Shown: one piece after another, positions 3,620-37,826 of the stretch | Layout: each line of letters begins with the position of its first letter | Numbering within the stretch: position 1 is the first letter of the stretch | Virus record (IMG/VR): IMGVR_UViG_3300045988_040265 | Coordinates: 1-56,242 of that record | Reading direction: 5' to 3' (one strand) | Length of the DNA stretch: 56,242 nucleotides | DNA from: a virus | The notes under the pieces: model-generated | The model's database searches: none | What the model was told of the DNA's origin: nothing | Seen by the model: the letters and a program-made list of their open reading frames with translations, nothing else | Position numbers and translations under genes: made by a program

Positions 3620-4470
3620 AGTGTATCTCCTATAAAATCACTTATATTCATCTGACTATCCTTTTCAAATACAAGCATTTCATTTTTTGCACGCTCGTAA
3701 AAGTTTCTGTCAATCTCGAATCCGTATGCACTTCTGCCAAGTTCTGCGGCGGCTCTTAGCGTGCTACCGCTACCACAACAAGGGTCAATAACAACATCTC
3801 CCTCGTCTGTAAAAATCTCAATCAGCTTTTTAAGGACAGCCACGGGCTTTTGTGCTGGATGAATTTTCGGTATATCTTTTCCGTCTTTCTCCCAAGTAAA
3901 CCAATTAAAAATCATATGTCCTGTACCTCTGATATTCTTTCCGTTTTCATCAATCTGCAAGCCGTTTCTGAATTTCGGCAACTTATTTCGGTACAGTACA
4001 AGTGCATATTCCGTAGCACCTACGATACGCATATTCGCTTTAAACACCTGCGGACTGTAATTTTTACAGAATACAAGAGGTATGTAATTGACAAATCCGT
4101 GTTTCTTCGCCGCGGCAATCAATGTTGACAACTGCTCAAATGAGCAAAATACAATCATACAAGGACTGTTACTACTTCTGCCCCTTGCGATAGGCTTTGT
4201 GTCCTCTTTTTTCAACATCTTTGAGCAAAAATGGAAGTATTCATACAGATTAAAATTAAAATCTGAATTAAAAGCCGCCTTTTTCGCAAGTTTGCTCTCA
4301 CCGTTCTTATTATCGCCGCCGTTGTACCACATAGGGTTACTTCCGTAGAAGTTAGTTCCTACATTGTAAGGAACATCAGCTATAATCAACTGTGCTGGCG
4401 GTATTGCGTATTTCTTGTAATTCTGCATAGAATCACGATATATCTCACATTTAATCTTCTTTTTATACAT
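3616..4470 (-). CDS. Orphan DNA methyltransferase (N6-A/N4-C, beta class: motif IV before motif I)
   Basis: IIADVPYNVG (DPPY-like) near the N-terminus and VIDPCCGSGST (FxGxG) near the C-terminus. No adjacent restriction gene. Confidence 0.85.
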   Translation of the reverse strand: MYKKKIKCEIYRDSMQNYKKYAIPPAQLIIADVPYNVGTNFYGSNPMWYNGGDNKNGESKLAKKAAFNSDFNFNLYEYFHFCSKMLKKEDTKPIARGRSSNSPCMIVFCSFEQLSTLIAAAKKHGFVNYIPLVFCKNYSPQVFKANMRIVGATEYALVLYRNKLPKFRNGLQIDENGKNIRGTGHMIFNWFTWEKDGKDIPKIHPAQKPVAVLKKLIEIFTDEGDVVIDPCCGSGSTLRAAAELGRSAYGFEIDRNFYERAKNEMLVFEKDSQMNISDFIGDTL

Positions 4471-4541
4471 TCTAAATCTACCAAAAGGAAACCTCGGTTT
4501 TATGTGCGCACAACCTATTCCTTTCTTTGATTTCTAGTTAG

Positions 4542-4715
4542 TTACTGGGGCTTCCTGCCTGTCTGAAAATACTCGTCATAAGCGTCAACTGTATCGCGTA
4601 TTTCAACCATAGCCATATCAAGTGTTACATCTTTTTTATCCAAGGCTCTTTCTGCATAATCTTTAATTCTCATCATTAAAGCCTGTGCTATTACTATCTT
4701 TGCATTGTCATTCAC
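4542..4715 (-). CDS. Possible small ORF (57 aa, GTG start)
   Basis: Hand translation VNDNAKIVIAQALMMRIKDYAERALDKKDV... It starts in the same GTGATTCAGAGTGA junction motif used by neighbouring genes. Confidence 0.35.
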   Translation of the reverse strand: MNDNAKIVIAQALMMRIKDYAERALDKKDVTLDMAMVEIRDTVDAYDEYFQTGRKPQ

Positions 4716-4721
4716 TCTGAA

Positions 4722-4997
4722 TCACTCGCTTTCTTTTCTCTTAAAATCCTCGCAAGACACATCAAGCAAGCAACCGCATTTTTCGATTTCTGTCACTCCC
4801 CAATATGTCTTATATCTGTAAGAGTTTTCGCATTTAAAACAGAAATCCTTGCCATTATTCAACTTGCAACTTGTCTTTTTGTCCTCTAACTTTTTTCCAA
4901 GACTTTCATTTATCCTTTTGAGTTCCTCGACCTTTTTCTGTGATTTCTCAAAATCTTCAATGAGTTTGTTATATTTCTTATTACTTAAAATCTTCAT
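4722..4997 (-). CDS. Hypothetical protein (coiled coil plus Cys cluster)
   Basis: ORF; ends ..KESE, and the stop is embedded in the junction repeat. Confidence 0.6.
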   Translation of the reverse strand: MKILSNKKYNKLIEDFEKSQKKVEELKRINESLGKKLEDKKTSCKLNNGKDFCFKCENSYRYKTYWGVTEIEKCGCLLDVSCEDFKRKESE

Positions 4998-5299
4998 TCT
5001 GAATCACCCTTTCCATTCCTGTATTCTTCTATTGTCTTGTCAACTCTGTCTTTGCCCCAATCTGCACTACAATACCATTCAACAGCTTTGAAAACAGGAC
5101 TTAGCATTTCAAAGAGCGTTTCCACTCTTATTTTAGCTGATTTGATATATTCAACTAACCGCCTCGTATCTTTTGCAACATCTTCATATCCGTTTTGATT
5201 GAGATAATCAGCCATTTCTTCCAATGTTTCAATGCTGCTGTACTGCATAAGGTCATCAATCTCTTTTGAATATAAATAATTCCAACTTCCACCGCTCAC
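4994..5299 (-). CDS. Hypothetical protein
   Basis: ORF with a GTG start overlapping the upstream stop. Confidence 0.6.
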   Translation of the reverse strand: MSGGSWNYLYSKEIDDLMQYSSIETLEEMADYLNQNGYEDVAKDTRRLVEYIKSAKIRVETLFEMLSPVFKAVEWYCSADWGKDRVDKTIEEYRNGKGDSE

Positions 5300-5895
5300 T
5301 CTGAATCACCCACTTTCAATAAATCCATAAACTTCTCATACTGTTTCTGTGATACCTTGTTATGCTCTTTTTCCGGTTTTAAGCGGATTGTAAGGTGCTT
5401 TTCTGCGATAGACGATAATTCCCTCGCTAACACCTTTTTGCCTTGCTGTATGCCTTGCATATAGCCTTTAGGTGCTTTTCTCTCGCCTATTGAACCACTA
5501 GCACGATTTTCTCCTTGACCGCCCAAACTGACATTCCTAAGCTGATAGCCTTTGTCGGCATACAGCTTGATGTAATACTTCTCTTTCTCGTCAAGCTGAC
5601 TTTCGGAAAAATTCAGAAACTCAACTCGCCAGCCATAAGGATTTTTCTCTTTGTCGTATAGCTTATGTTTGCGTAAGCTAAGGTCTATATGCTGTTCATA
5701 ACCTACAAGGTGGCTTGCCAATCTGCTAAGTGTATGCACCGCCTGTCCAATATACGCATACTTAAATCCGTTTTCATCTTCTCGGAGTAGGAAATAAATC
5801 CCACTCCTGTCATTCAGCTTTGGATTTAACTTCAACAGTCGCTTTTTATTTTCCTGCTCAATCGCCTTGGCTCTTGCTATGTTCTGGTAATTCAA
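5296..5895 (-). CDS. GIY-YIG nuclease domain protein
   Basis: SGIYFLLRED..FKYAYIGQA, YYIKLY. Confidence 0.75.
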   Translation of the reverse strand: MNYQNIARAKAIEQENKKRLLKLNPKLNDRSGIYFLLREDENGFKYAYIGQAVHTLSRLASHLVGYEQHIDLSLRKHKLYDKEKNPYGWRVEFLNFSESQLDEKEKYYIKLYADKGYQLRNVSLGGQGENRASGSIGERKAPKGYMQGIQQGKKVLARELSSIAEKHLTIRLKPEKEHNKVSQKQYEKFMDLLKVGDSE

Positions 5896-11978: not shown

Positions 11979-12365
11979 TTAATCTTTCAAAACCGACATA
12001 TCATATCCGCTTTCAATAAACTTCAATGTTTTTGCATGATTGCACCTATTTCCAAGATATGTATAAATCTGCTCCATATCTTTCTCTGTAAAATCGGTTT
12101 CCAAAAACTGATTTATACCGCCAAGTATAAATCTGTGAAATTCGTCATTGCTTCGTTTAGTGCTGTAAGGCTCTGTCTTGTATGCGGGTCTTGATAGCCA
12201 TTCCAAAACTTTACACTTTACATCTGTTTCGTTTTCACAATCTTTTAATCCAAAATATGTATTGCTTCTAATATGTGCTATAAATTCTGCGTTATGATTT
12301 ATAACGCTATTAGGAAAACAATTCATTAACTTTGTAACTATATCCCAACTAATCAAAACGGACAT
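11979..12365 (-). CDS. Hypothetical protein
   Basis: ORF; its start ATGTCCGTTTTGA lies inside the junction repeat. Confidence 0.6.
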   Translation of the reverse strand: MSVLISWDIVTKLMNCFPNSVINHNAEFIAHIRSNTYFGLKDCENETDVKCKVLEWLSRPAYKTEPYSTKRSNDEFHRFILGGINQFLETDFTEKDMEQIYTYLGNRCNHAKTLKFIESGYDMSVLKD

Positions 12366-13108
12366 TCATCTCCTTTCCTTAGAACCCATTCTTTATTAGG
12401 CTCTGCAACATCCACATTTGCGTTTCTGTCAACTTTTTTCATCTTCTCGATGAAACTATCTCTATCAGAATTTTCACTCGATAGATGGCACATTATGACG
12501 TTTTGCAAGCTATCTGAATAATTTGCTTTAACAAAATCACAAGCTGTGTCAATGGATAAATGACCTCTGAAAACGTGATTAGCTTTGCCTGCGTTATCCC
12601 TGTCGATTAAATCTTTGTCATAATTCACACCTAAGAGAATGTGGTTTATGTCTTTAAACTTCCACTTGATTAATTCACAATCGGTTATGTAAAGCATTCT
12701 TCCCATTTTCTTGTGAGTAATCAGAAAACCATATATCGGGCAAGGTGTTCCATCTGCGTTAGTGTGTGTCCAGCTTCCGTCTATTGTTGTTAGGTTAAAT
12801 GCCTTAACTTTAAAACCGCTAAATGGTATCGTGTGATAACGATGTATACCCTCGTGTTGTGCGTATTGTATATATGGTGCATAAATTGGTATTCCCATTG
12901 ACTTAAAATCGTTTAATGACTTGCTGTGATCTGAATGAACGTGGCTGACTATGCAGCCAACCACATTTCTTATGTTCCAATCTAAGCCTTTTTTAATCTC
13001 CTTAATCGGTATTCCACAATCAAGGATAAGTGTTTCTCCGCTATCTGCTTGCAAAAAATAGCAGTTACCTGCTGATGATGAGCCTAAGCATTTTAATCTC
13101 ATACTCAC
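12353..13108 (-). CDS. Metallo-beta-lactamase-fold hydrolase (recombination-module nuclease candidate)
   Basis: SHVHSDHS motif; position next to recT. Confidence 0.8.
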   Translation of the reverse strand: MSMRLKCLGSSSAGNCYFLQADSGETLILDCGIPIKEIKKGLDWNIRNVVGCIVSHVHSDHSKSLNDFKSMGIPIYAPYIQYAQHEGIHRYHTIPFSGFKVKAFNLTTIDGSWTHTNADGTPCPIYGFLITHKKMGRMLYITDCELIKWKFKDINHILLGVNYDKDLIDRDNAGKANHVFRGHLSIDTACDFVKANYSDSLQNVIMCHLSSENSDRDSFIEKMKKVDRNANVDVAEPNKEWVLRKGDECPF

Positions 13109-13423: not shown

Positions 13424-14320
13424 CTATTCTGCCTGCATAAATGGCGGCAATGTGCTATCTTCTGCCTGTTTTTCGGTTGCTTCTGTGGCTGTACTGTCGA
13501 TAATGTCGCTTTCTTCAAAATCAACGCTATTTGCGTTCTGCTCAATGTCATAAGCAACATCCTGTTCAAGCATTTCATCGTGGCTGATTTCCTCATAATC
13601 ATCTTCTCCGCCAAAACCACTATGAGTATTGTTGATAGATTTAAGGAGCCTGTTCTTAACAGTTTTCATAGCCATCTGGTCTGTAAACTTCTGATGAACT
13701 CCGTTTCCATTCTCCTTATATCCAAATCCCTGTTTCCAAGCTGTCTTTATCTGCTTGATAGTCATAACTTCTGTTTTAACAGTTCCGTCTTTCATAACCG
13801 CAACCGCATAAGCACCCTTAATCTTGTCATTGTCGATATTGTCAATTTCCTGTGTGTGCTCTACGATTGTTTTCTTTCCATTCTTGATTGTGTAACTAAA
13901 CTTATCTCCCTCATAGACAACCTCTGCGTTAATATCAGCAAGCCCGTATCTTCTAGCAACGCAAGTTGCACCATAAACAGACGGCTGACAACTTAATTTG
14001 CCCGCATAAGCAACTGGGTAACACTGCTTCTTTCTTATTGATAATCCGTCTGTTACCATTTCAATAAGCGCATTTTCAATACTTGCCCTTGTGCAACTCT
14101 GTAATACAGGCTTCTTATTCATATCCTGTGTGTCCTGTAAAATAAGCATTGCTGACATAAGCTCGTTTGTATAGTTGTAATCTTTAGGGAATGTTAAGCC
14201 AAATTTCTCTTTCTGCTTGATTTTTACAACCATTCCCTCTGTAAAATCTTTTGCTACAAGCTCTCTGCTTTCAGCTTCTTTCTTTTCTGCAACTGCCGTA
14301 TTCTCTTCCATATTATTCAT
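13424..14320 (-). CDS. recT: RecT-family single-strand annealing recombinase
   Basis: ..CYPVAYAGKLSCQPSVYG..VVYEGDKFSY..GAYAVAVMKDG..MAMKTVKNRLLK, acidic C-terminal tail. Confidence 0.85.
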   Translation of the reverse strand: MNNMEENTAVAEKKEAESRELVAKDFTEGMVVKIKQKEKFGLTFPKDYNYTNELMSAMLILQDTQDMNKKPVLQSCTRASIENALIEMVTDGLSIRKKQCYPVAYAGKLSCQPSVYGATCVARRYGLADINAEVVYEGDKFSYTIKNGKKTIVEHTQEIDNIDNDKIKGAYAVAVMKDGTVKTEVMTIKQIKTAWKQGFGYKENGNGVHQKFTDQMAMKTVKNRLLKSINNTHSGFGGEDDYEEISHDEMLEQDVAYDIEQNANSVDFEESDIIDSTATEATEKQAEDSTLPPFMQAE

Positions 14321-14540
14321 CCTCCTCCATCATTTTCAAAACAGTTTTCACAAAGCTCTTAAGGCCTGCGTCTGACTGTTTTCTGATCTGTTCGTCAGTA
14401 AGTTCAGAATTTTTCAAGCAACGATCATAAGTTTCTTCTCCCAAAACCCTCTTGCAGTTTTTCAAAAGTGCCGTAAACTCTGCTTCTACAATAGGCTTGG
14501 GGCCTGTAATTTCCAGTTTATTAAAGTCTATTCTTATCAT
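14313..14540 (-). CDS. Hypothetical protein (75 aa)
   Basis: I prefer the ATG at 14540, just downstream of the RT stop. Confidence 0.55.
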   Translation of the reverse strand: MIRIDFNKLEITGPKPIVEAEFTALLKNCKRVLGEETYDRCLKNSELTDEQIRKQSDAGLKSFVKTVLKMMEEDE

Positions 14541-14548
14541 TGTAATTC

Positions 14549-15598
14549 CTACCTTTCTAATAATTCTTTCACATATAAATCCATCGAGTAACATAGTTTG
14601 ATACAATTTCCATGTAATGCGTGATTCTTCCAGGCATTATACTTTTCATAGAATTTTTTCTCTGTCATTCTTCCAGAATTGACAAGCTTCACCCACACCG
14701 TAATTTTTTTGCGGATTTTTCTTTTATTTACTCCATTTAATTTTCTTATATACTTTCCATCTTTGGTAACGTAATGATGAAAACCTGTAAACAACATTCC
14801 GTTCTTGAATGGTATAATCTGTGTTTTGCCATTAAGTGATAATCCAAGGCTTTCAGCAAACTGCTTTATGCAATCAAGACACCATTTCAAATATTCCTTA
14901 CTTGGTGCTATTAGGTAAAAATCATCCATGTATCTACCGTATAGCTTTATTCCTAACTCACCTGTGATAAAATGATCTAATCCATTCAGCATAAGCAAAG
15001 CATAAACCTGTGCCACCTGATTACCAAGTGGTAATCCCAAACCATCTGTACTGTCTATAAATAGGTGATTAAGCCACTTCGTATAATCATCTGCAAAATA
15101 GTAATCAACAATATCTTTCAACACTTCATGATCTATCTGATAGAAAAATTTTGTAATATCACATTTTAGAATCCAACCATCAAGTCCATGTTCTCTGTAA
15201 AATTCAAGCATATGTTCTTTCAAACAATCCATTCCAAAATGTGTACCTTTGCCTATCTGCCCTGCATAATTAGACTTAATAAACTCATCTGCCAACCTTG
15301 GATGCAAAATATTGTCGCACAAACAATGTTGAATTACCTTATCTTTGAATGAACACGATTTAATCACTCTTTCCTTTGGTTCGTAAACATTAAATTCATT
15401 GTACGGATTCATCCGGTATGTCTGATTTTCAAGTTGTTCCTTCAAAAGATGTAGTCCTTCAAGATCCATTGTCTGAAATCTTGCACTGCTGCCATTAAAT
15501 CCTTTGCCTGCTTTAGCCTTTCTATATGCTTTATACAGATTTTCATAACTGCAAATAATATCTTTATCCAATGTAAAAACTCCTTTGTATTTACCCAT
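14549..15598 (-). CDS. DGR reverse transcriptase
   Basis: YMDDF catalytic box and LPLGNQVAQ (a DGR-type variant of RT motif 4); about 350 aa; adjacent to the TR and Avd. Confidence 0.92.
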   Translation of the reverse strand: MGKYKGVFTLDKDIICSYENLYKAYRKAKAGKGFNGSSARFQTMDLEGLHLLKEQLENQTYRMNPYNEFNVYEPKERVIKSCSFKDKVIQHCLCDNILHPRLADEFIKSNYAGQIGKGTHFGMDCLKEHMLEFYREHGLDGWILKCDITKFFYQIDHEVLKDIVDYYFADDYTKWLNHLFIDSTDGLGLPLGNQVAQVYALLMLNGLDHFITGELGIKLYGRYMDDFYLIAPSKEYLKWCLDCIKQFAESLGLSLNGKTQIIPFKNGMLFTGFHHYVTKDGKYIRKLNGVNKRKIRKKITVWVKLVNSGRMTEKKFYEKYNAWKNHALHGNCIKLCYSMDLYVKELLER

Positions 15599-15667
15599 TT
15601 AGGGAAGGTCATACACTTTTTTGTATCTTGTACTGATTTCGGCTTATTGCCTACTCTTACTGTCTGT

Positions 15668-15746
15668 ATGATACAGAATGGGCGAACACCGTTGTTGTTA
15701 TTGCAATTGTTGTTGTTGATATTGCCAGCCGGGGCAACAACGGTTT
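15668..15746 (-). repeat. DGR template repeat (66-nt core 15681-15746 plus a divergent IMH*-like 3' end 15668-15680)
   Basis: Base-by-base alignment to both VRs; the coding strand is full of AAC/AAT codons. Confidence 0.9.
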
Positions 15747-15770
15747 ATACAGTGTATAACCTATATTTGT

Positions 15771-16142
15771 TTACCTTTCCCTGTCCTTTGTTCTCCAAGC
15801 AATAGCCATATGCTTTATATCAGAAACCATCTTTGACCAGTATTCCATGCTTTGCATATTTATAATGTTCAACTTCATTGACAGTTCAATGTAAAACATC
15901 AATTCGTCACAATGCGTTATGGCTTTAGTCTGCAATTCTGATCTCTCCCTTCGAAACAATCTCAAATCTGTTCTATTTGCTTCATACAAATACTCATATA
16001 TTTCAAGTGCTTTATTCTGCATCTTATCTACCAGTGAAAATCTGTATTTCTTTGGGTATCTGTTGCAATTTGAAGTTATACGCAAAGTATGTTCAGCTAA
16101 TTCTTTCGCCTTAAGAATTACTTTTAATTCTGTATCTACCAT
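15771..16142 (-). CDS. avd: Avd-like accessory variability determinant (four-helix-bundle family)
   Basis: About 123 aa, basic and helical (RYPKKYRFSLVDKMQNKALEIYEYLYEAN); canonical position between target and TR. Confidence 0.75.
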   Translation of the reverse strand: MVDTELKVILKAKELAEHTLRITSNCNRYPKKYRFSLVDKMQNKALEIYEYLYEANRTDLRLFRRERSELQTKAITHCDELMFYIELSMKLNIINMQSMEYWSKMVSDIKHMAIAWRTKDRER

Positions 16143-16146
16143 TTTA

Positions 16147-16755
16147 TTATTCCTCTGATTCAAAGATTAAAGAGGAAAAGATACAAACCGGGCGAACACC
16201 GAAGTTGTAATTGCAACTGATGCTGCTGATAACGCCAGCCGGGGCAACAACGGCCACAGATCTATTCCAGTCATTACAAGGTGTACTCCATGGAGAAATC
16301 AACCACCAATAAAAATTAGTATTAGGTATAAGTTTTCTGTATTTCCTATACTCATCAATAGTAAGAAGTGATACCATATCTTCGCATTCTCCGTATTCCG
16401 TCTGTCCATCAAGAGAAGTCAAATCACGGTTAAACGTAATAATGTTTTCTTCTCCAATTTCATCAGAAATCTTTTCAAAAAATTCTGTATTGAGATATTC
16501 TCTTAACTGGCTTCCTGCCCAATCACTGGATCTCTCATCAAATTCCATGGAATCTTCTAACTTATCAGCAAGACACATATAACCATTTTCTGTAATGTCA
16601 AGTATCTTCCAGTTAATCCCGGCTATTTCAAAAGTGTCTCCAATCCCTAATCCTACCGGAATCTTTCTAACTTTGTTTGTTGCTTCAAGAATCGCAACCT
16701 TATTTCTCAATTCATTAATCTGCTCCTGTAATACTTTCATTGTTAAATTAGCCAT
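16147..16755 (-). CDS. DGR target protein 2 (202 aa, C-terminal variable region)
   Basis: C-terminus ..YWWLISPWS..AVVAPAGVISSISCNYNFGVRPVCIF carries VR2. Confidence 0.9.
   Translation of the reverse strand: MANLTMKVLQEQINELRNKVAILEATNKVRKIPVGLGIGDTFEIAGINWKILDITENGYMCLADKLEDSMEFDERSSDWAGSQLREYLNTEFFEKISDEIGEENIITFNRDLTSLDGQTEYGECEDMVSLLTIDEYRKYRKLIPNTNFYWWLISPWSTPCNDWNRSVAVVAPAGVISSISCNYNFGVRPVCIFSSLIFESEE
16178..16256 (-). repeat. DGR variable repeat VR2 (core 16191-16256, IMH-like end 16178-16190)
   Basis: 12 mismatches to the TR, all at TR adenines (coding strand). Confidence 0.9.
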
Positions 16756-16757
16756 AA

Positions 16758-17357
16758 TTATTCTCCTTTCGATACAAAGATATTAGATTTTAAGATACAA
16801 ACCGGGCGAACACCGTTGACGTAATTGCAATCGTTGCAGCGGATACCGCCAGCCGGGGCAACAACGGCTATCTGATATTTCCAACCTCTATCATCAGTAG
16901 ACCACGGCGTGCAAGTCCACCACCAATCATCAAGGTCTTTATTAACAATAAAATCATTGTACTGTCTTGCTTCTTCAAAAGTTGCAACTCTAACTTTACT
17001 TTCAATCAAATCAAAACGATCTTGATTATCAACAGTTTTTACAGCAATATCTTCTTTGATAATGTTGTATTTACCTACGGCGTTTTCAATAACCGGCTGA
17101 ATTTCCTTTTCAATAATCTTTTTGAGATTAGAATTGTTATAATCAGGAGTATTTTCATCAAATACAACATCCTCTGCCATAAAATTCTTAGATATTACCC
17201 TTGTTGCATTTCCATAATGTCTAAGAACGATAAAGTCATGGGTACCAATCTTAAAAACGTCTCCCGGATTCAGTTCTGACAACTGTACCTTGTTATCCTT
17301 TTCTGCTTTTTCCAACTGCTTGACAAGTTCTCTTGCAATTTCTAATGCTTTGCTCAT
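16758..17357 (-). CDS. DGR target protein 1 (199 aa, C-terminal variable region)
   Basis: C-terminus ..WWWTCTPWS..AVVAPAGGIRCNDCNYVNGVRPVCIL carries VR1. Confidence 0.9.
   Translation of the reverse strand: MSKALEIARELVKQLEKAEKDNKVQLSELNPGDVFKIGTHDFIVLRHYGNATRVISKNFMAEDVVFDENTPDYNNSNLKKIIEKEIQPVIENAVGKYNIIKEDIAVKTVDNQDRFDLIESKVRVATFEEARQYNDFIVNKDLDDWWWTCTPWSTDDRGWKYQIAVVAPAGGIRCNDCNYVNGVRPVCILKSNIFVSKGE
16792..16870 (-). repeat. DGR variable repeat VR1 (core 16805-16870, IMH-like end 16792-16804)
   Basis: 12 mismatches to the TR, all at TR adenines (coding strand). Confidence 0.9.
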
Positions 17358-17374
17358 TTTTGTTCCTCGCTTTC

Positions 17375-17650
17375 TTATGATTCCTCAAAATGCTCCCTAA
17401 TATCGTTTCCGTTATCGTCATACCACTCACACCATTCCTGTTCCTCATCATCAAAATATTCAAGCCCGGAAGCATTACAATAGTTTGGCTTTATGTTGTT
17501 TTTGTACTGAAATAAGTCATAATCCCACAATGTATTAAGAATTTTCCAAGCCTGTTCAACACTTTCAACTTCTACATAAAAGTTTTTAACCGCTCCTACT
17601 TGGCAATTATGCCAAACTCTTAATTTCGTCATATTATTCCTCGCTTTCAT
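17375..17650 (-). CDS. Hypothetical protein
   Basis: ORF in the operon. Confidence 0.6.
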   Translation of the reverse strand: MKARNNMTKLRVWHNCQVGAVKNFYVEVESVEQAWKILNTLWDYDLFQYKNNIKPNYCNASGLEYFDDEEQEWCEWYDDNGNDIREHFEES

Positions 17651-17948
17651 TTATTATTTTTAATTCAGATTTGAGTTTTTCAATTTCTTCCAATTTGTCT
17701 GCAATTCTTCTTTCAGCCCTGTTCCGGAATGCCTCTTTTGCATATTCAAAGTTAGGTTTTGTAAGAAACAGGCAATTAAAATTAGTTATTCGCCCAACAT
17801 CATCTTTCCTTACCGTACTATAGTTGTTTGGAAAAACTCTATCAACAGGCTTGTATGTCTTGGGCTTCTCTTCTGCTTCACATTCCTTAACGTATAAACC
17901 TTTAGGGTTTCTACCATAAGTATTCAAAAAGTAAAAGTATAATTTCAT
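17634..17948 (-). CDS. Hypothetical protein
   Basis: ORF in the operon. Confidence 0.6.
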   Translation of the reverse strand: MKLYFYFLNTYGRNPKGLYVKECEAEEKPKTYKPVDRVFPNNYSTVRKDDVGRITNFNCLFLTKPNFEYAKEAFRNRAERRIADKLEEIEKLKSELKIINESEE

Positions 17949-17949
17949 A

Positions 17950-19884
17950 TCACACCGCCTTAATCACAAGCTCTTTGTCCTGTGTATGCTTTAACAAAAT
18001 TAACTGGCTCTCAACCTTTGGTATTCTCCAGTTGTCAACAGATTCAGCATCATCAATGATGATTGGAATGCTGATTCCAAGCTTTTTCTGAAATGCCATA
18101 CAAATATCCATTTCTGTAAGCATTCTGGCACCATGGTTAAGATTTCTTGAATAGCTTTCTCCGTCTTTGATAAAGTCGCAACACTCTTCAATCTCTCCAT
18201 TAACAAGAGGTCTGAACATTTTCACTTTGCAGAAGTCTAGGTATTTATTAACGTCAGCCGTGAGGATTTCGTTCTTTCTTCTTTCAAAGTCTTTAAGCAA
18301 CTCTTTGATTCTTTCCTGATCTGCAATTTTCTGTTCACAATCTCTCCACTCTTTTGTAAGCTCCTCAATTCTTTCATCAATCAGAACATCACCTTCGGCT
18401 TTAGAAATCTTAATTTCAACAGAAGAAAGTTCCTGTCTAATATCAAGTTCTCTTTCCTTTAATTCTGAATTGATTTCAGAAACAGATACATTTTTCAAAG
18501 AATCCTCAAGCTTGATTATTCGTGCTGACAATTCCTTATACTTTTCATCAGAAGAAATATCCGCAACACTTGGTAACTGAAAAATTTCTGATTCAATTCC
18601 CTTTAACTTTCTGTCCGCTTCAACCATTCTGTCCTCGTTTGACGAAATCATATTTTTTGTGCAGTCAAGCCTTTCCTGCAAATGCTCAATCTCTTTCTTG
18701 ATTTCGATTCCAGACTTTTCAATATTTGAAATCCTAGTTAATTTTTCGGATACAAAGTTGTCCTTTAACTTCTGTATTTCTTCACCCGGAAGCTCCCTGT
18801 GGCAAGTAGGGCAAGTCGTTGTAGATTCGTCAAAACATTCTTCCTTTACCGACTTCCACTGCCCTGCAAGTCTTTCTCTCTCGGAATTTTTCTTTTCAAT
18901 TTCCTCCCGGTATTTTAATAACTCCGTTTTGCAATTTTCTATTCCGTTTGCAATTTCAAACCTTTCAAGTTCCGCTTTAGACTTCTGATTCATCAGCTCT
19001 CTCTTCTGTTTTTGAAGTTCATCATTGGCAGAGTTTTGAATCTCTGAAATTTCAAACTTCAATTTCATAATTTCATCAAGAAAACCGTCATGCTCTTTAA
19101 CTGTTGATGATAAATCTTTCTGTCTTTCAATAACTTCGTTCAGTTCTTTCTTTAATCCGGATCTCTGTAGTTCAAGCTCCGCAACATCAATGTTTACTTT
19201 TTGCAGGTTCAATTCATCAATCCTTGACTGATATTCTGCTGCCTGCTGCTTTAATCCCTTTGTTGCGTTTTTGCCCTTTGAACCATTCAGTACCCTGTTG
19301 CAACGATCTTTAAGCTCTTTAACACTTCCGTCTTCAAACATAGGTTTTAACTCTTCAAAAGAAGAATCCATATCGCATATATCTGAATCTGTATGTGTGC
19401 TAAATACACCATTCAGAATTTCTCTCTGATCTGATGCGTTTTTTGAAAGAAGCGTCATTGCATTGATGCAGTAAGAAAGATTCTCAAAGTTTTCTTCTAA
19501 AAACTCTTTGTAGTCTCCGGCTTTCTTAAGAATGTCATTGATATAACATTCTGTTACATTTCCTGTAACTTCTCCTTTCTTGTTTACATTCTGCCTGTAC
19601 ACCTTTTTAAGCTGTTTTACGGTTCCGCCAATCTCCAATTCAATAAATGCCGTACAATCCTCGGAGTTAACGTCATTACCGTTTTTATCATGCGGTCTTA
19701 TTCCTGTAATTTCCTTGCCGTTTTCATCACGGCAATTTAATATCCACTGAATAATCTTCTTTATTGTTGATTTCCCAGCTTCGTTAATTCCGCATACCTC
19801 TGTAACATCACCAAAGGTTGCATCAAGTACATGATTTCCATAAAACTTAAAGCAATTATTCGCATATATTCTCTTTATTTTCAT
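17950..19884 (-). CDS. SMC/Rad50/SbcC-like AAA ATPase with coiled coil and zinc hook
   Basis: Walker A GINEAGKST, central coiled coil with CPTCHREL, Walker B-like IIIDDAES. The ATG at 19884 overlaps the upstream TGA. Confidence 0.8.
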   Translation of the reverse strand: MKIKRIYANNCFKFYGNHVLDATFGDVTEVCGINEAGKSTIKKIIQWILNCRDENGKEITGIRPHDKNGNDVNSEDCTAFIELEIGGTVKQLKKVYRQNVNKKGEVTGNVTECYINDILKKAGDYKEFLEENFENLSYCINAMTLLSKNASDQREILNGVFSTHTDSDICDMDSSFEELKPMFEDGSVKELKDRCNRVLNGSKGKNATKGLKQQAAEYQSRIDELNLQKVNIDVAELELQRSGLKKELNEVIERQKDLSSTVKEHDGFLDEIMKLKFEISEIQNSANDELQKQKRELMNQKSKAELERFEIANGIENCKTELLKYREEIEKKNSERERLAGQWKSVKEECFDESTTTCPTCHRELPGEEIQKLKDNFVSEKLTRISNIEKSGIEIKKEIEHLQERLDCTKNMISSNEDRMVEADRKLKGIESEIFQLPSVADISSDEKYKELSARIIKLEDSLKNVSVSEINSELKERELDIRQELSSVEIKISKAEGDVLIDERIEELTKEWRDCEQKIADQERIKELLKDFERRKNEILTADVNKYLDFCKVKMFRPLVNGEIEECCDFIKDGESYSRNLNHGARMLTEMDICMAFQKKLGISIPIIIDDAESVDNWRIPKVESQLILLKHTQDKELVIKAV

Positions 19885-20171
19885 GATACCGCCTCCCAAT
19901 ATTTCGCTACACCAGTTGCAATTGCTCTTGCCATGTTTCCAGATGGAAGAACACCTGCAAGCTTCGTTGTGTTGTAGTCGCTGTCTGATGGATGGGAAAT
20001 CTCTTCCGAAACCCTCCAGTTAGGTATTGCAATCCACCATGATTTTCCTTTGCCTAAAATGGTTCTGTACTTAAATCCATTGTACAGAACATCAAGCTCA
20101 AGTATTTCATAGCTACCACTGTACTTTACTTCCACGTCCTTATCTTCATCACTCGGCACAATATCTATCAT
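19881..20171 (-). CDS. Hypothetical protein (96 aa)
   Basis: The ATG at 20171 follows GGGGAGGGTGAATAAG. Confidence 0.55.
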   Translation of the reverse strand: MIDIVPSDEDKDVEVKYSGSYEILELDVLYNGFKYRTILGKGKSWWIAIPNWRVSEEISHPSDSDYNTTKLAGVLPSGNMARAIATGVAKYWEAVS

Positions 20172-24966: not shown

Positions 24967-25833
24967 TTACTTAGCTCCGTTCTTTTTCATTTTCGTAAAC
25001 TGCTCATAAAGCTCTGCAATTAAGTGTGACTTTAGCCATTCAGTCCAAAATTCAAGGCCTTTGCTATCTGCATTTCTGTTAAACACATTTTTATATGCAC
25101 ATTTTACCGCATACTTTCGTGCTTCATCTGACTTTGCAAATTCATTTTCAATTTCTACCAAACTTGCATCATCTGTCAGCTTATTTTTCCAGTAATTAAG
25201 TCCACCATCATCTGCCACTCTTCCAAGGTATGTTGCATACAACGTTTTAACAAAAACTATTTTTTGACCATCGTTCATATTATAAAAATCCCCTTTCTTT
25301 TCTTCTACCGGATGTAGTCTTTTATTTACTTCTTCCGCAATATAAAAATGCTTACTGTATAAGTATTCCCCAGGACAAGCTTTATTTGCAAACCATCTAT
25401 GAACCGTCATGTTCTGCTTATCTATTTGACCTATTAGAGACCTATCTGCTTGCCATTTAAGGCTATCAATTCCGTTTCTAGTACAAATATCTGTACACAA
25501 TTCAATTAATGCCTTCATAGCCTTTTCAGATACGTGCCATCCGGTAGATTCCCCACCATCATTTGCTACTTCAATTGTAACTGCCCTCATGTCATTTGAC
25601 TTATTAGAGCTACACCAAGAACCGTTACATTCTTCAACATACATTGCAATTCTTCCGTCAGAACCGATTCCGTAATTTGAAGACGCTTCTCGGTTTTGGA
25701 ATACATTTCCGCACTGTTCCACAGTTAAATCGCCTGCCATGCAGTGAATTGTAATCGTGTCTATTGTGTGCGTTCTTCCGTTATAATGATATGGACTTAA
25801 CAATATATAACTAATTAATTTACTATTACTCAT
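24967..25833 (-). CDS. Endolysin: N-acetylmuramoyl-L-alanine amidase (Amidase_2/PGRP) with DUF4214-like C-terminal repeats
   Basis: ITIHCMAGDLTVEQCGNVFQNREASSNYGIG..VTIEVAND; C-terminal LNYWKNKL / LEFWTEWL repeats. Confidence 0.88.
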   Translation of the reverse strand: MSNSKLISYILLSPYHYNGRTHTIDTITIHCMAGDLTVEQCGNVFQNREASSNYGIGSDGRIAMYVEECNGSWCSSNKSNDMRAVTIEVANDGGESTGWHVSEKAMKALIELCTDICTRNGIDSLKWQADRSLIGQIDKQNMTVHRWFANKACPGEYLYSKHFYIAEEVNKRLHPVEEKKGDFYNMNDGQKIVFVKTLYATYLGRVADDGGLNYWKNKLTDDASLVEIENEFAKSDEARKYAVKCAYKNVFNRNADSKGLEFWTEWLKSHLIAELYEQFTKMKKNGAK

Positions 25834-25845
25834 AGTATCATCTCC

Positions 25846-27783
25846 TTAAATTGTATAAGTAAATGTCCAATACATACTTGTTGCCGGCATGTTAGCAGCG
25901 GTTCCATCATTTTTCTTAGTGTATCCTATCTTGACTTCTCCTGTTGTTTCTATAACAATTTGACCGATATAAATTCCATTAAATCTATGATAATCAATAA
26001 TCCGATATAATGGCTTGCTATCGTCAGGAAGCGTTCCAACAAGTGCATATCCAGCAGATGTGCCAAGTTCTTGTGCAATTTTTGATACAATGCAGGTTAT
26101 TGTTGCTGAATTGTATCTTTTATTCAAAGTTATTGCTCCGGTTTCAATGTTTGTCTTATTGGTTATATCGGTCGAAGAAAAATTTGAAGCATCTAAGTCT
26201 CCAATATTCATTGACCCATGAACCCAAAGTCCATTTTCGATTACGGTTGCCTTGTTTATATGCAAAGTATTCGGATAAATTTTCCCAGCAATTATTGATA
26301 TTTCGTTTTCTGAATAATAAAAAATATTATCGTTATTTCTATAATTAAGTTCTAATTTATCCGTACCTTGTCCTTGATTTCCAGTCAGTGCTAGTGCCGT
26401 TATATATTCCCAAGGGTCAGTTGCACTCCCAACTATTTCCCACGGCAATCTAAGCTTTAGGCCTCCGTCAATAATGACATCATTACTTTTTATTGAACCT
26501 CCAACAATTGTTAAATCAGTGCATGTTTGTTTTCCATCTGCATCAACCTTCCATTTGTCAGAATCAATTACTACACGATTTCCTGTTAGTGTTATCTGTT
26601 CTGTTTCTAATGATAGTTGAGAACTTACTTCTCCTTTGGATACTTTTAGCTTTAGTCCCTCTTCGGTTTTTGCAATTTTGATTTTCAATCTTCCATTGTC
26701 TGAATTAAGTTTTGCCAACTGACCAATAACACTGTTTACGTCCTGCTGGATATACTCTTCTCCACTTGCTTCTATGGAATCAGTTAATGCTTGTATGCCG
26801 TTGATTTCTCTTTTTAATATATAAGTTGTATCCAAATTTCCAGATTCATCATTAAAAGAGACCTTATCTCCTAAGTCAAAATATGGCTGGCCAACTGATT
26901 CAATAGTTGCGGGTCTGTATGATATTCCGTTAATTTTTCCTGCAATCGTATTTGCAATGCTTATTAATTCCGCTTCGGTTTTGTCTGCAATAAGATAATT
27001 GTCTGTAATAATATATGGATTTGTATGGCTTGTAGACTGATATACAATATCACTGTCTGTAAACTTAATTGTAACTCCATCAATGGCAGAAGTATTATAG
27101 TCTTCACACTGCGGATATGATCTTAATATTCCGTTTAACGTATCTACTGGATCTCCAGTTGATAAATACACGTATTCAAAATTTCCACCCCTTGAAATGT
27201 TTCCAAAGCATCCGTTTAGCTCACAAATACCCTGCATTAAATCTAATCCATTAATCGCTCCATCATCATCTAGGGTTTTGTTTATTTCCATTGAATCAAA
27301 TGGTAATGTTGCTTCTACCTGCTCCAACCCCACATGCCCGCATAAACCATCTCTTAAATCCTTTACTGTAACCGGAAACACTAAACTTCTATACCATTCC
27401 CCAACATCAACAGATAGTTTTTTCATCCTGTCATATGCAGTAATCTTTCTGAATGGTCTTCCTACTTCTTTCTTTGAAGATTCTACCGTAAACAAGCCTA
27501 GTGAAAGTTCTGTTGTATCACTATCTACTAACAATTTTGGTTGTATCTCTTTACCAATCAAATCTTCTGTAATCTCAGCAACAGTAATTTCAAAACTGGT
27601 TGAATTACAAGAGCCAAACTTTATGTTTTCATCATCGGACAACGATTGCTTTATTCTCATGCTTTCTGAAACTATGTTACTGTTTGTTATTGTTGTTTCA
27701 TTTCCGGATATAGAAATATTCAGTTTCTTTCTTCCATTACCGCTTCTGTACAACTCTTTTAATTCATTACTTATATTAATCAT
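25846..27783 (-). CDS. Tail fibre / tail-associated minor structural protein (receptor-binding candidate)
   Basis: Size, position after tape measure and Dit, N-terminus MINISNELKELYRSGN.. The ATG at 27783 overlaps the upstream TGA. Confidence 0.65.
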   Translation of the reverse strand: MINISNELKELYRSGNGRKKLNISISGNETTITNSNIVSESMRIKQSLSDDENIKFGSCNSTSFEITVAEITEDLIGKEIQPKLLVDSDTTELSLGLFTVESSKKEVGRPFRKITAYDRMKKLSVDVGEWYRSLVFPVTVKDLRDGLCGHVGLEQVEATLPFDSMEINKTLDDDGAINGLDLMQGICELNGCFGNISRGGNFEYVYLSTGDPVDTLNGILRSYPQCEDYNTSAIDGVTIKFTDSDIVYQSTSHTNPYIITDNYLIADKTEAELISIANTIAGKINGISYRPATIESVGQPYFDLGDKVSFNDESGNLDTTYILKREINGIQALTDSIEASGEEYIQQDVNSVIGQLAKLNSDNGRLKIKIAKTEEGLKLKVSKGEVSSQLSLETEQITLTGNRVVIDSDKWKVDADGKQTCTDLTIVGGSIKSNDVIIDGGLKLRLPWEIVGSATDPWEYITALALTGNQGQGTDKLELNYRNNDNIFYYSENEISIIAGKIYPNTLHINKATVIENGLWVHGSMNIGDLDASNFSSTDITNKTNIETGAITLNKRYNSATITCIVSKIAQELGTSAGYALVGTLPDDSKPLYRIIDYHRFNGIYIGQIVIETTGEVKIGYTKKNDGTAANMPATSMYWTFTYTI

Positions 27784-28202
27784 GATAATGTATTCACCCC
27801 ATAACTTATCCATGCCATTCTTGTTGATTGATATTGTATTTTATTTTCATCCGCGAAGTACATCTGCGGACTAAAATCAGCCATGTACATGTCACTTGTG
27901 ACGTACTTATCTAGTTCCGGCACATAGACTTCTACACTTGCTTTCTTTTCTACTGAATCTATATAGTTATTTCTGATATTCAGCATAATCTCACTCATCT
28001 GACGATCATCAAGCATATTTCTAGTTTCAAATTCAACTTTAGGTGCCTGTTTTGCTAATGCCGTTCTGTGCAGTCCGCCATCTGTATCTCTGTAAGAATC
28101 CAAATCTTGTCCGTAATTTGTTGCAGAATAGCTTTCTGCAGCTATCATGGATAGTGGTATTTTATAATTTCCAACTTTAATTAAATATCCGTTATATTCC
28201 AT
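27780..28202 (-). CDS. Distal tail protein-like (called by position)
   Basis: Immediately downstream of the tape measure gene. Confidence 0.5.
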   Translation of the reverse strand: MEYNGYLIKVGNYKIPLSMIAAESYSATNYGQDLDSYRDTDGGLHRTALAKQAPKVEFETRNMLDDRQMSEIMLNIRNNYIDSVEKKASVEVYVPELDKYVTSDMYMADFSPQMYFADENKIQYQSTRMAWISYGVNTLS

Positions 28203-28247
28203 ATTTTTAACCTCATAAAAAGGAGAGGTTTTATCCTCTCCTTAATC

Positions 28248-31200
28248 TTAAATCAATAACGCATTGTTACCTGTTCTGTTGTAATACTGTCGATTTGAAC
28301 GTCTTACAGAATCAAATATATCACTGTCAGTAATTCCAAACTCTTTTTGGACAATCTGCATGAGCAAATCATTCTGTCTACGAAGCATTGCAAGCTCCTG
28401 CCTGCTTGAATCGTATATTGCATCTCGAATACCTGTAATCTCATTGTTTGACGCTACTGCACTCTTTCCGTTTACCGTTCCTACAAGCTCCGGGCCTGCT
28501 TCGTTCGCTACAAATAAATCACCCATATCTGGGAATCCGCCGTTTTTATAAAACCGAAGTTTAGGCCATCCGCTTAATCCGAACGCTCTTACAACCGCAC
28601 GTTGTATGATGTTTGCAGGTGTTGAAAATTCAACATGGAATCTAAGTATAAGATTCTGCTGAATCCATCCCATGGCATTATTCCATGCCTGCCGGATTCT
28701 TCCAAGTATGTCCGGCACTCCAATATTAGGTATTAAAGTAGAGACATTTCTTCTCCACCATGATTTCGCCGCTTCCCACGCTAGCCACAATTTATTTGCA
28801 ATTGTATCATCGCCACGTTCAAGTGATATTTTTGGAGTAAAGTTTACATTCTTCGCCCACCACTCTTTAGCGGTTTTCCATCCATGCCACAATCTGTTGG
28901 CTATATCCGGAATATTTACAACAGGTGTAAATTTAATCGCTTTTTTAATGTACTCCCTAGCTTTTCCCCATGCAGTAACGATTCTGGATTTTATATCTGG
29001 AACATTTACAGTTGGATTAACTTTAACATTTGTTTTAATCCAAGAAGAAGCTTCTCCCCATGCTCCGATAATCGTAGACTTTATATCCGGTTTGTCAACA
29101 TCAATCTTGATTTTGTTTTTGTTGTCTTTAATATCAACATCTTCACCAAAAAGATTATTCCAAAAATCAGTCCATACCTTTTTTATATCTTCGCCTAGAG
29201 TGTTTAACATTGCGATTATTGCGTTTTTAAGTGCATATGCAAGCTCTGCCCAAACAAGCGGATTATCAATGGTTGTCTTAAACGTCATGATTGCTCCCCA
29301 CAACAGGTCAGCAAATGTTTTTCCAACACTCTTCCAATCCACTTCTTTGATAAAGACCGTTATCGAATTAAATAGGGTAGCCGATACAGAAGCCCAGTCG
29401 ATTTCTGACAGAAAATCATCTATTGCGCTAACAAGTCCATTTACAAGGTCAGCTCCTGTTCCAATTGTTCTTGCCCATGTTTCCTTGTCAGTAAAAAGCT
29501 TATTAATTGCTTTTCCAAGTCCCTTTGCGACTTTCTCTGCACCATCCTTAAACGAATCTACATCAAGGGTATTAAGTCCATTGTTAATACCTCTTATAAT
29601 TGAATCTGCGAATCCATCGAAATCAAAAGTATCTCCAAATCCATTGAGAAATGCAAATGCGGTATTAAGCAATTTTGCAACAGTCTTTGTTACAGACGCA
29701 AATGTATTGGTGTCAAATAATCCGTTAAGAAAATCAGCAAGGCTCTCACCAAGTGATTTTCCGTTAGAAATAACCACACTCCAATTTATTCCATCCAAAG
29801 CAGACTTAATTGATTCTCCTACAAACTTACCTACGCTTTCAAAATTTGTATTTTTCAAAAATTCTCCGATGCCATAAGAAACGGTATTAACTGCCTGTGC
29901 AATTGTATTTCCTATTTTGTTTGCAAGGTCAGGAGTTTCTACAAATCCAGTAATCAATGTGCCTAATGATTTACCAATCTTCTTTGCTTTTTCCTGTATT
30001 TCAGACCAATCAATGCTATCAAGTGCAGACGAAAGATTATCTCCTATTATGCGTCCTATTCCGGCAAAATCAGCGTTTTCCCATGCTTCCTTTATCTTTT
30101 CTGAAAGTTTCTTAATGTTTTCTGGAATATCAGCATCTTCATAATTCGTTCCCTTGTTGTCTTTATTTCCGCTTCCGCTACCGCCTTTGCTTCCGTCATT
30201 AGTTGTGATGTTGTTTAATTCATCAAAACTCTGTAACTGTTTGTTCAAATCTTTTTGAGCTTTTGATGCACCACTTGCAGAATCCTTAAATGCGTCCATG
30301 TTTGCAGTAGCTTTAATGTATGTGTTTTGTCCAGATAATGCTGCAATTAATTGCGATAACGCATTGACGGCAAATAGTATTCCATTTGCTAACGCATTAA
30401 CCGCAGGCAACACGTAATTCAGTACAGGTTCAAATGCAGCTACAAACTGACCTCCGATCAGTTGCAATGTTACCTTAAGTTTGGTCATTTGTTCTTCAAG
30501 TCTTTTTGAGTGCTTTTGAAGATTTTCAAAACTATCACTCATGCTATCTGTAACTGCCGTAACTGCCATTGAACGAAGCCTGCTTGCCAAAGCCATAAAT
30601 ATTCGCTGAATGCCACGAATAAGTTTGTTTGATGATTTGGTTCCAGACTTTCCAAAATCGAATATTTTTTTGATTAAGTTCGTAAGACCATCAGCCATCT
30701 TCTTGAAAAAGTTGACTACATTTCTAACCATTGTGCTTATCACGTTTGCTACTTTTCGCAATCCATTTATAAGCATGGTTACACCGGCTAACACAAGTCC
30801 AATCACTGGTATTGCAGTTTGAAGTCCAGCCATTGCAGTGCCGGCCGTTTCTGATGTGGTGGCAACCTCTGTCATTCCACTTGCCATATTTGTAAGGTTT
30901 TGGCTTGCTGATTGTACTCTTGATGCAGTCTGACTGAATCCCATTCCCCTCAATACATTTGCAAGAGTTTTCCCAATTTCACTTGCTTTTAGTAAACTAT
31001 CTGAAAATCCAGAAGCCTTTTGCTCCATGTTTTCAATTGCCGTTCCTGATTCTTCCATGTCGATTGCTGAATCGACAAGCTTATTGTACCCCTCTGTTAC
31101 ATGATTTATATTCCACTCTAAATCTTTGTACTTTTGAGATTCTTTATCAACACCTGTATCTTCAAATCTTTGTTTTTTCAAAAACAATTTATCTAAGGAT

Positions 31201-32153: not shown

Positions 32154-32198
32154 TGCCTTACACCTACTTTCATAATATTAAAAAAGACGGTACAAACG

Positions 32199-32510
32199 TT
32201 AGTCCGTACCGCCATTGTTTTTCTTCTTATTAAGTTCAAAATTGGACTGCATAACTTTTAGTTGTGCAAAGAACAATTCTGCTTTTTTCTTTCTGCTCTC
32301 TTCCGATTGCTCTTCTTCTATCAATTCAGGAATTGGCTTTTTATAATATTTGTTTTTTGAATTTAATGCACAAGCTATTGCCGACATCATATAGTGTCCA
32401 TTTAACCAATCTCTGTAATCTTCTTCTTTTTTCTTTTCCAAGTATCCTTTGGCTATCGAATTAAATTCTGCACAAGTAAGATTCCAAAATGTTTCCCATG
32501 AAATTCCCAT
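32199..32510 (-). CDS. Tail assembly chaperone, frameshift-extension part (T-like)
   Basis: Lies in the -1 frame relative to 32552-32902. That frame is open from the slippery site onward (hand translation). Confidence 0.65.
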   Translation of the reverse strand: MGISWETFWNLTCAEFNSIAKGYLEKKKEEDYRDWLNGHYMMSAIACALNSKNKYYKKPIPELIEEEQSEESRKKKAELFFAQLKVMQSNFELNKKKNNGGTD

Positions 32511-32551
32511 CTTGTATGCCTTTGGATACAGTTCTTCATGAATCCATTGTC

Positions 32552-32902: not shown

Positions 32903-33059
32903 GTTTATACCTTTTACCTTTCCTCCTATACAAGATGTATAGGAAAGGGGCAGTCCGAAGACCGCCCTTTCTTACTTAGTTAATAAAGTTCTGGCTCGGC
33001 TGTTTCTTCATTATAGCCAGTCGCAACAGCCTTGCTATTGTCCTTAACGGACTGGCTAT

Positions 33060-33533: not shown

Positions 33534-33591
33534 GTTTTCTACCTCCTATTTTTAAAAAAATAAGAGCCTTTTGGCTCTCTTAAACTTTTAT

Positions 33592-34549: not shown

Positions 34550-34550
34550 C

Positions 34551-34994: not shown

Positions 34995-34995
34995 A

Positions 34996-35322: not shown

Positions 35323-35325
35323 TTG

Positions 35326-35649: not shown

Positions 35650-35739
35650 TTATATACCGCCTTTCAAGTTTAATAATGGCACACCGCCCACCACCCTTAA
35701 AGTGTGCCGCCTGCTACCATAATGGCAACGCACAATCTT

Positions 35740-36102: not shown

Positions 36103-36110
36103 ACGGTCTC

Positions 36111-36359: not shown

Positions 36360-36372
36360 GGTTCTGCACCTC

Positions 36373-37440: not shown

Positions 37441-37451
37441 TGTTTTACCTC

Positions 37452-37814: not shown

Positions 37815-37826
37815 GTTTTTAACCTC

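Follow-up and report, generated by a model that had tools for sequence, protein, structure and literature searches.

Genes and repeats of the cassette

The minus strand of a 56,242-nucleotide viral genome, IMG/VR record IMGVR_UViG_3300045988_040265 (positions 1 to 56,242, the whole of which we call the window), carries at positions 14,549 to 17,357 a cassette that an initial annotation, made without database searches, had read as a complete diversity-generating retroelement (DGR) with one template repeat (TR) and two variable repeats (VR1 and VR2). The order on the minus strand is target gene 2, target gene 1, avd, TR and reverse transcriptase (RT) gene. Target gene 2 (16758..17357) and target gene 1 (16147..16755) encode proteins of 199 and 202 residues, respectively, each consisting of an N-terminal helix and a DUF6273 domain with the VR at the C-terminus. 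The avd (accessory variability determinant) gene at 15771..16142 encodes a 123-residue four-helix bundle, and the RT gene occupies 14549..15598 when read from its first ATG (349 residues). The TR sits in the non-coding gap of ~170 nt between these last two genes.

The three repeat copies lie on the minus (coding) strand at 15680-15746, 16190-16256 and 16804-16870, where they had been placed initially. Searching the window for their shared flanks with 33 unconstrained nucleotides in between yields exactly three matches, and shuffles lead one to expect none. We recounted the differences base by base over 15681-15746 and arrived at the annotated figures: VR1 and VR2 each differ from the TR at 12 positions, and the TR base is a coding-strand A in 24 of 24 cases. 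The hypergeometric chance of such A-only mismatches is 1.3e-7 per repeat and 1.7e-14 for both. The peptides encoded by the two VRs, GVISSISCNYNFG and GGIRCNDCNYVNG, likewise agree with those first reported. No mismatch falls on a non-adenine position inside the template, and non-A differences are confined to its 3' junction. The initial annotation gave the repeat an extent of 66 nt (15681-15746); the repeat itself stands, whereas its ends have to be moved. Position 15746 probably lies just outside the template, in the flank, because it is T in all four VRs examined, while 15745 and 15744 are within the template, as AA is retained at these positions in a sister phage. Beyond the annotated 3' end, homology extends to 15670. 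With its extent set by the TR bases seen in VRs, the TR is a non-coding, invariant, AAY-codon-rich segment at 15676..15745, in register with VR1 at 16186..16255 (3' end of target gene 1) and VR2 at 16800..16869 (3' end of target gene 2), all on the minus strand.

The RT carries the Pfam RVT_1 domain, and its closest match in the PDB is the DGR RT of the Bordetella phage (bRT; 8ub7), with E 6e-37, 130 bits and ~290 alignable residues. The next PDB matches, group II intron and 'retron-type' RTs, follow at E ~1e-10 to 5e-11 (45 bits for group II). Template and incoming-nucleotide contacts of bRT, with residue roles as described in bioRxiv 10.1101/2023.10.23.563531, are kept at F66, R74, I76, G182, Q187 and the catalytic aspartates, and two residues are substituted (I181 to L and S186 to A). 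The nearest deposited phage RTs are all from gut-phage DGRs: nd12 at 49% identity, and nd4, FP_Brigit, FP_Toutatis and Lelie at ~40%. Placement of this enzyme among group II intron or retron RTs had been named as an outcome that would speak against a DGR. The NCBIfam model group_II_RT_mat scores 90.6 bits against a cut-off of 300, retron and defence RT (DRT) models, including those of PADLOC, give weak matches far below their cut-offs and below the bRT match, and Pfam finds nothing beyond RVT_1. A search of 14000-18000 at E values up to 1 returned no group II intron or retron RNA family. The RT thus belongs to neither the group II intron nor the retron/DRT families by these measures.

The annotated RT of ~350 residues between the repeat and 14549 holds up in its identity, whereas its start at ATG 15598 probably does not. 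In 22 of 22 aligned relatives an ATG occupies the column of TTG 15571 of the window, with a conserved AAAGGAG upstream (Shine-Dalgarno GGAG at 15580-15583), and for this reason translation probably starts at TTG 15571, giving 340 residues. Many of the 22 relatives have an upstream frame without any ATG, and one related locus, L052, has an in-frame GTG upstream that falls within the 3' arm of the long-range RNA helix described below. No conserved RNA structure was detected in the first 90 nt of the RT open reading frame.

The helical protein encoded between target gene 1 and the TR had been called Avd-like. Its AlphaFold model (predicted local distance difference test, pLDDT, 90.8) superimposes on the Avd chains of 4dwl, the BPP-1 Avd, and 8ub7 with Foldseek template modelling (TM) scores of 0.74-0.85. 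The NCBIfam model DivGenRetAVD matches with E 1.4e-12 at 47.8 bits, against a cut-off of 80; a Pfam 23S_rRNA_IVP match is below its cut-off too. A sequence search of Avd against the PDB found nothing, and only the fold comparison worked. We therefore identify the protein as Avd by its modelled fold together with these sub-threshold profile matches. Its start is probably ATG 16142 and not TTG 16163, since the resulting 123 residues are the length of nearly all listed homologues. The sole hint at the host is a close homologue of Avd, which carries an annotation from a Lachnospiraceae metagenome-assembled genome.

Variation among related cassettes

We gathered relatives through a protein search with the RT and not through the DNA pattern of the VR flanks; an exact scan of metagenome and genome collections with those flanks returned GC-rich chance matches only (L002-L005). 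The RT has 548 relatives in IMG/VR, and our comparison of related loci covers ~75 IMG/VR loci with RT identities of 76-99%. The order target-target-avd-TR-RT is kept throughout, and mismatches between repeats are almost all at A. Non-A changes specific to one lineage are common to the TR and both VRs of a locus; one example is a change from GCCCCGGCTGGC to TCGTCCGCTGGC in all three copies. Because TR and VRs share such lineage-specific changes and differ at A, the pattern reads as the signature of repeated transfer of information from template to target.

In the sister phage (L001, IMGVR_UViG_3300045988_057627) the TR is identical and the flanking genes are 1-2% divergent, while the two VRs diverge by 20-27%. 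Genomes that are 96-99% identical outside the VRs carry entirely different VRs. Among 42 proteins that are at least 91% identical to target 1, no two have the same VR peptide, and variation is limited to residue 168 and residues 175-185. Entropy exceeds 2.5 bits only at residues 175, 177-180 and 182-185, which correspond to the nine AAY codons of the template. I176, from an ATC codon, varies between I, V and F, and residue 168, from ACC, between A, T and S, while C181, whose TGC codon is free of adenine, is invariant. The same pattern is found in 35 proteins at least 83% identical to target 2: each has a unique VR peptide, variation is limited to residues 171-181, and C177 is invariant. Invariant VRs across related genomes would have spoken against the annotated element; all 42 target-1 and 35 target-2 relatives differ. 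The earlier statement that the element has been active is thus supported by VR differences among near-identical relatives, and a different VR in every near-identical genome indicates, as far as comparative sequence can tell, that activity is recent.

Several relatives depart from this scheme in length or gene content. Locus L052 has three tandem targets at 3621-5448, in which the target-1 type is duplicated and each copy has its own VR state; one of these copies bears the C-terminal tail typical of target 2. Protein P0031, of the target-1 type, has the C-terminal tail of target 2, which suggests recombination between the paralogues. Two proteins (P0039 and P0040) have one to two additional residues inside the VR, the TR of locus L028 has two additional AAC codons, and several VRs differ from their own TR by insertions or deletions of 3 or 6 nt.

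The 3' ends of the repeats point to a direction of transfer. After a common CGCCC, the TR of the window reads ATTC-TGTATC and both VRs read GGTT-TGTATC. This includes two non-adenine differences, T>G and C>T, at the place where differences between the initiation of mutagenic homing sequence (IMH, in the VR) and its TR counterpart (IMH*) are expected, so a directional IMH/IMH* junction with few differing bases is present. The TR junction is ATTC in 68 of 70 loci and TATTC in the remaining two, whereas VR junctions read GGTT, AGTT, ATTT and others before the common TGTATC. We tallied the four bases after CGCCC in 136 distinct VRs. At the first base (A in the TR) VRs have G in 78 cases, A in 44, T in 13 and C in one; the second base matches the T of the TR in 40% of VRs, and the fourth matches C15676 of the TR in 10%. 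Since the share of TR-like bases drops between the second base and C15676, the 3' limit of transfer is graded rather than fixed, ending at or just before the shared UGUAUC, and this gradient is consistent with a cDNA start at C15676. A few related loci have the same junction in VR and TR, and directionality there would have to rest on sequence further 3'.

The DGR RNA and a proposed cycle

We aligned 34 distinct sequences spanning the interval between the avd stop codon and the start of the RT gene. The strongest element is a 12-bp long-range helix that brackets the template, formed by a 5' arm, AGGUUAUACACU, at 15751..15762 and a 3' arm, AGUGUAUGACCU, at 15606..15617. It is paired in 98.5% of the cells of the alignment and has compensatory changes at nine of 12 pairs, far above shuffled and slid controls. 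In BPP-1 its counterpart is the avd:Sp 'cPRT Stop' duplex (bioRxiv 10.1101/2023.10.23.563531). Beyond its 3' arm lies a stem-loop, CCC-UAAAU-GGG (15594..15604), followed by the nearly invariant A-rich UAAAUACAAAGG. Two of the three base pairs of this stem show compensatory changes, in 16 and five sequences, and stem-loop and tail match the stem-loop and adenosines that form part of the cPRT Stop in BPP-1. All of these elements are on the minus strand.

A second pairing joins the template end to the spacer, which measures ~98 nt to the conserved RT start codon, taking TTG 15571 as that start. The UGUAUC common to TR and VRs (15670..15675) is the proposed template strand of a template:primer duplex, and GAUACA in the spacer (15622..15627) is its proposed primer strand, with A15622 as the putative priming adenosine. 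GAUACA:UGUAUC is paired in 98% of cells with one compensatory change. UGUAUC may also fold into a local hairpin (15676-15664), and it is paired in 98-99% of cells either way, with little covariation to tell the two equally compatible pairings apart. Between the primer strand and the 3' arm of the long-range helix lie four unpaired A. We infer the primer role of GAUACA by analogy with Sp47-56 and A56 of BPP-1. An alternative spacer pairing, CAUACA:UGUAUG, was rejected, being just 69.5% paired, and that spacer segment pairs with the 5' flank of the TR. In sum, a DGR RNA is recognisable in which covariation backs the stop duplex and the stem-loop, and in which the template:primer duplex is paired and hardly tested by covariation.

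Two further structures were noted in this RNA. The hairpin GGC-AAUAA-GCC (15641..15651) is 100% paired, has the invariant flanks AGUAG and CGAAAUCAG, and is a candidate protein-binding stem-loop. Within the template, the ends 15736-15745 and 15686-15695 are perfectly self-complementary (ACCGUUGUUG and CAACAACGGU) and could form a 10-bp hairpin in the TR RNA. This pairing is conserved, with 90% paired and zero compensatory changes, and may be incidental, a by-product of the coding sequence. In VR transcripts the corresponding pairing would be weaker once the adenines of AAC codons are mutagenised. The spacer also matches the Rfam RT-2 RNA motif (RF03077) at 30 bits with E 2.8e-5, and the GGC-AAUAA-GCC hairpin is the core of this match. 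RT-2 has been described only as occurring near RT genes (PMC5737381). We do not assign the locus to this family, which it resembles, as 30 bits is below the gathering score of 40, and none of 11 related loci reaches that score.

Together, these elements suggest the following cycle. An RNA that begins just past the avd stop codon and extends into the region of the RT start would be folded by the 12-bp helix (15762-15751 with 15617-15606), with the stem-loop and A-rich tail (15604-15580) coming after it. The spacer GAUACA (15627-15622) would pair with UGUAUC at the template 3' end, and A15622 would prime cDNA synthesis in cis opposite C15676, the first templated base. These two assignments are drawn from the BPP-1 model, and they agree with the 3' boundary of transfer seen among VRs. 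The RT-Avd complex would copy the template faithfully except at adenines and halt before the long-range helix. The resulting cDNA would replace the homologous stretch of either target gene, rewriting nine AAY codons, one ATC and one ACC at the C-terminus of the DUF6273 (C-type-lectin-like) domain.

Role of the targets and comparison with known systems

Both targets have the VR at the C-terminal end and a Pfam DUF6273 match (cut-off 23.5 bits), at 38.2 bits for target 1 and 25.1 bits for target 2, and both fall in PHROG 9958 (E 1.4e-44 for target 1). The N-terminal helix of target 1 spans residues 2-29 of its AlphaFold model. When the targets were compared with the PDB by sequence and by profile, the only match was a marginal one, to the DUF6273 N-terminal domain of IgA protease 9qa6. 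DUF6273 has been modelled as C-type-lectin-like, with the VR as a surface hairpin (PMC10743442, PMC11792537, bioRxiv 10.1101/2024.10.15.618418); the C-lectin assignment itself rests on PMC10743442 and bioRxiv 10.1101/2024.10.15.618418. In gut phages, DUF6273 targets of DGRs have been reported as probable receptor-binding proteins (PMC10743442, PMC11792537, bioRxiv 10.1101/2024.10.15.618418).

The window is the genome of a temperate siphovirus-type phage. Its structural module (terminase, portal, major head protein, tape measure, tail protein and endolysin) extends over 24967-43080, the integrase gene is at 55189-56154, and tRNA genes for Gln (TTG) and Ile (TAT) lie at 44051-44429, just outside the large terminase gene (41344-43080). 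The early operon that holds the cassette begins at the repressor/antirepressor region. Neighbours of the cassette are genes for SSB, an SbcC-like ATPase and a gp17-like protein on one side, and for RecT and a hydrolase of the metallo-β-lactamase (MBL) fold on the other. A near-identical phage has the same arrangement, while a more distant relative has other neighbours (a Lin1244_N-domain protein and a DNA methylase), none of them recognisably structural. Promoter and terminator scans gave counts at chance level. In the phage GenBank set no near DNA relative was found, the sole match being a 5.6-kb fragment at 70% identity.

The gene directly upstream of target 2 (17375-17650) matches the Pfam family GP17, 'superinfection exclusion gene product 17', with E 1.5e-22; a database protein of 291 residues (P0279) carries a GP17 domain and covers the whole of target 2, and may be a fusion or a gene-calling artefact. 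The SbcC/Rad50-like coiled-coil ATPase (17950-19899; 649 residues, with a possible zinc hook) matches PADLOC LmuB of Lamassu with E 1.8e-13, which probably reflects shared SMC-like architecture and not a defence gene. For the MBL-fold hydrolase (12353-13108), downstream of RecT, the anti-Pycsar model Apyc1 scores 16.7 bits against a cut-off of 50, a match too weak to identify the enzyme as an anti-defence nuclease.

We are highly confident that the locus is a canonical, evidently active DGR in a temperate siphovirus-type gut phage. With far less assurance, we lean towards targets that are surface-exposed binders on the virion, where their N-terminal helices would hold them as accessory proteins for receptor binding or adhesion; by diversifying them the phage would widen or shift its attachment range. 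Several observations weigh against one or the other of these views. Activity is deduced from differences between metagenomes, that is, between assembled contigs. The RT motif is LGNQVAQ and not the usual IGxxxSQ, with G and Q kept and S replaced by A, and the Avd profile scores stay below the curated cut-offs of both Pfam (bAvd) and NCBIfam. In the RNA, the template:primer pairing is too conserved for proof by covariation, and the hairpin at 15676-15664 competes with it. We found no GC-rich cruciform downstream of the VRs, where DNA folding is no better than in shuffles (z -0.57 downstream of VR1 and +1.25 downstream of VR2). The target 1 model has a mean pLDDT of 62, and of ~33 over residues 146-202, the VR-bearing C-terminus; a Foldseek comparison of this low-confidence model with the PDB is meaningless, and the C-type-lectin fold is a putative one. 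Finally, the cassette lies in an early recombination operon, ~8 kb from the tail genes, which does not speak for a virion role.

This last point leads to the alternative that survives best, in which the DGR is real and its targets are non-virion early proteins, cytoplasmic variable binders in phage-host or phage-phage conflict, acting for example in superinfection exclusion or in neutralising variable host defence proteins. Placement of the whole cassette downstream of the repressor/Cro switch argues for it, as do its neighbours (the SbcC-like ATPase, the GP17 family gene, RecT and the MBL-fold hydrolase), the lack of recognisably structural genes beside the cassette of the distant relative, and the absence of an N-terminal hydrophobic segment, as read from the sequences, in either target. 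There is also a precedent in Quimbyvirus, where a non-structural DGR target by defence genes has been proposed (PMC8008677). Gene position by itself, however, is weak evidence, and in other gut phages DUF6273 forms the head that is diversified in Hoc-like/tentaclin and tail-associated proteins. The N-terminal helix is plausible as a virion-docking or oligomerisation module, and neither target matched any family in a search of defence systems. On balance we regard non-virion targets as unlikely. Slightly less likely still is the more specific version in which the DGR and both targets belong to the early operon and the targets are intracellular binders, continually re-randomised against molecules of the host or of competitor phages. 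The early-operon cassette makes this a good family for asking whether phage DGR targets are always virion proteins.

The other two alternatives concern the element itself. If the DGR had decayed, its VR differences would be old and the cassette would no longer mobilise template information; the two deviating positions of the RT motif (L for I181 and A for S186) could be taken this way. Every open reading frame is intact, though, genomes that are 96-99% identical outside the VRs carry entirely different ones, non-adenine changes of the TR reappear, lineage by lineage, as copies in both VRs, and the RNA helices are maintained through compensatory changes, so that we hold decay to be very improbable. 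A reading in which the RT is part of a different retroelement (group II intron, retron or defence RT) and the repeats are paralogous sequence homogenised by recombination is practically excluded, since recombination cannot yield mismatches limited to adenines of the non-coding copy, the search of 14000-18000 for group II intron and retron RNA families came back empty, the RT of 340-349 residues has no Pfam match beyond RVT_1, and the NCBIfam group II score of 90.6 bits (cut-off 300) and several weak PADLOC DRT matches, which could be cited in its favour, are far under their cut-offs and under the bRT match.

For a canonical DGR, the family forms an unusually clean natural dataset, in which, across hundreds of related phage contigs, a short template serves two or three targets and the DGR RNA is compact. 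Covariation pins down the stop duplex, the stem-loop and a candidate priming adenosine, all of which are testable in a Firmicutes-phage DGR far from the Bordetella prototype.

Compared with that prototype, the BPP-1 DGR (mtd-avd-TR-brt), the cassette has the same order of target, avd, TR and RT, adenine-specific mutagenesis, a VR at the target C-terminus, the Avd fold and the template-contacting residues of the RT. The RNA elements also follow the same order: template:primer duplex, upstream:spacer 'stop' duplex, short stem-loop and adenosines. In the cryo-EM structure of the BPP-1 ribonucleoprotein, the last three form the 'cPRT Stop', and comparable stop duplexes are predicted in 207 of 278 Avd-encoding DGRs (bioRxiv 10.1101/2023.10.23.563531). 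When the duplex of BPP-1 was restored by compensatory mutations, cDNA synthesis did not recover. BPP-1, however, has one target and not two in tandem, and its Mtd has beta-prism and beta-sandwich domains that the DUF6273 targets of ~200 residues lack. Its TR is 134 nt long (here ~70 nt) and its spacer 140 nt (here ~98 nt to the conserved RT start codon), its long bRT-binding stem has no counterpart found here, and two nucleotides, instead of four unpaired A, separate its primer strand from the stop duplex. The junction here has one to three differing bases without a 14-bp GC-only block, and no cruciform was detected after the VRs. Moreover, the BPP-1 cassette is placed at the end of the tail genes, whereas this one is in the early region.

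With RT-2 of Rfam (RF03077; Weinberg et al. 2017) the locus has in common its position by an RT gene, the AGUAG-hairpin-CGAAAUCAG segment and another hairpin that has UAAAUA after it; it lacks the model's outer stem and 113 of the model positions, and it scores 30 bits against 40. The Quimbyvirus DGR (Benler et al. 2021; PMC8008677) also has two targets, one of them away from the structural genes and proposed to be non-structural. It differs in its Bacteroidetes host, in an RT split over three frames, and in that one of two targets lies outside the structural module, whereas here both targets and the RT do.

The closest systems are DGRs with one TR and two DUF6273 targets, known from nd4/nd12 (PMC10743442), Faecalibacterium phages (PMC11792537) and Toutatis-like phages (bioRxiv 10.1101/2024.10.15.618418). 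With nd4/nd12 and the Faecalibacterium phages Lelie, CP11 and Toutatis-like, the window shares one TR, two VRs and DUF6273 on both targets, as well as a small single-domain target between short helices and an RT that is 40-49% identical. In those phages one target is a large immunoglobulin (Ig)-domain 'tentaclin'/Hoc-like protein and the cassette is surrounded by genes for structural proteins and lysis; the present cassette belongs to an early recombination module, and its targets are two small paralogues side by side. Since dual-target DUF6273 DGRs have already been described in gut phages, this is a known type of system and no new principle is involved. What distinguishes it is the pair of small paralogous targets lying next to each other (in L052, duplication has made them three), the short template, the compact spacer and the location of the whole cassette in the early region.

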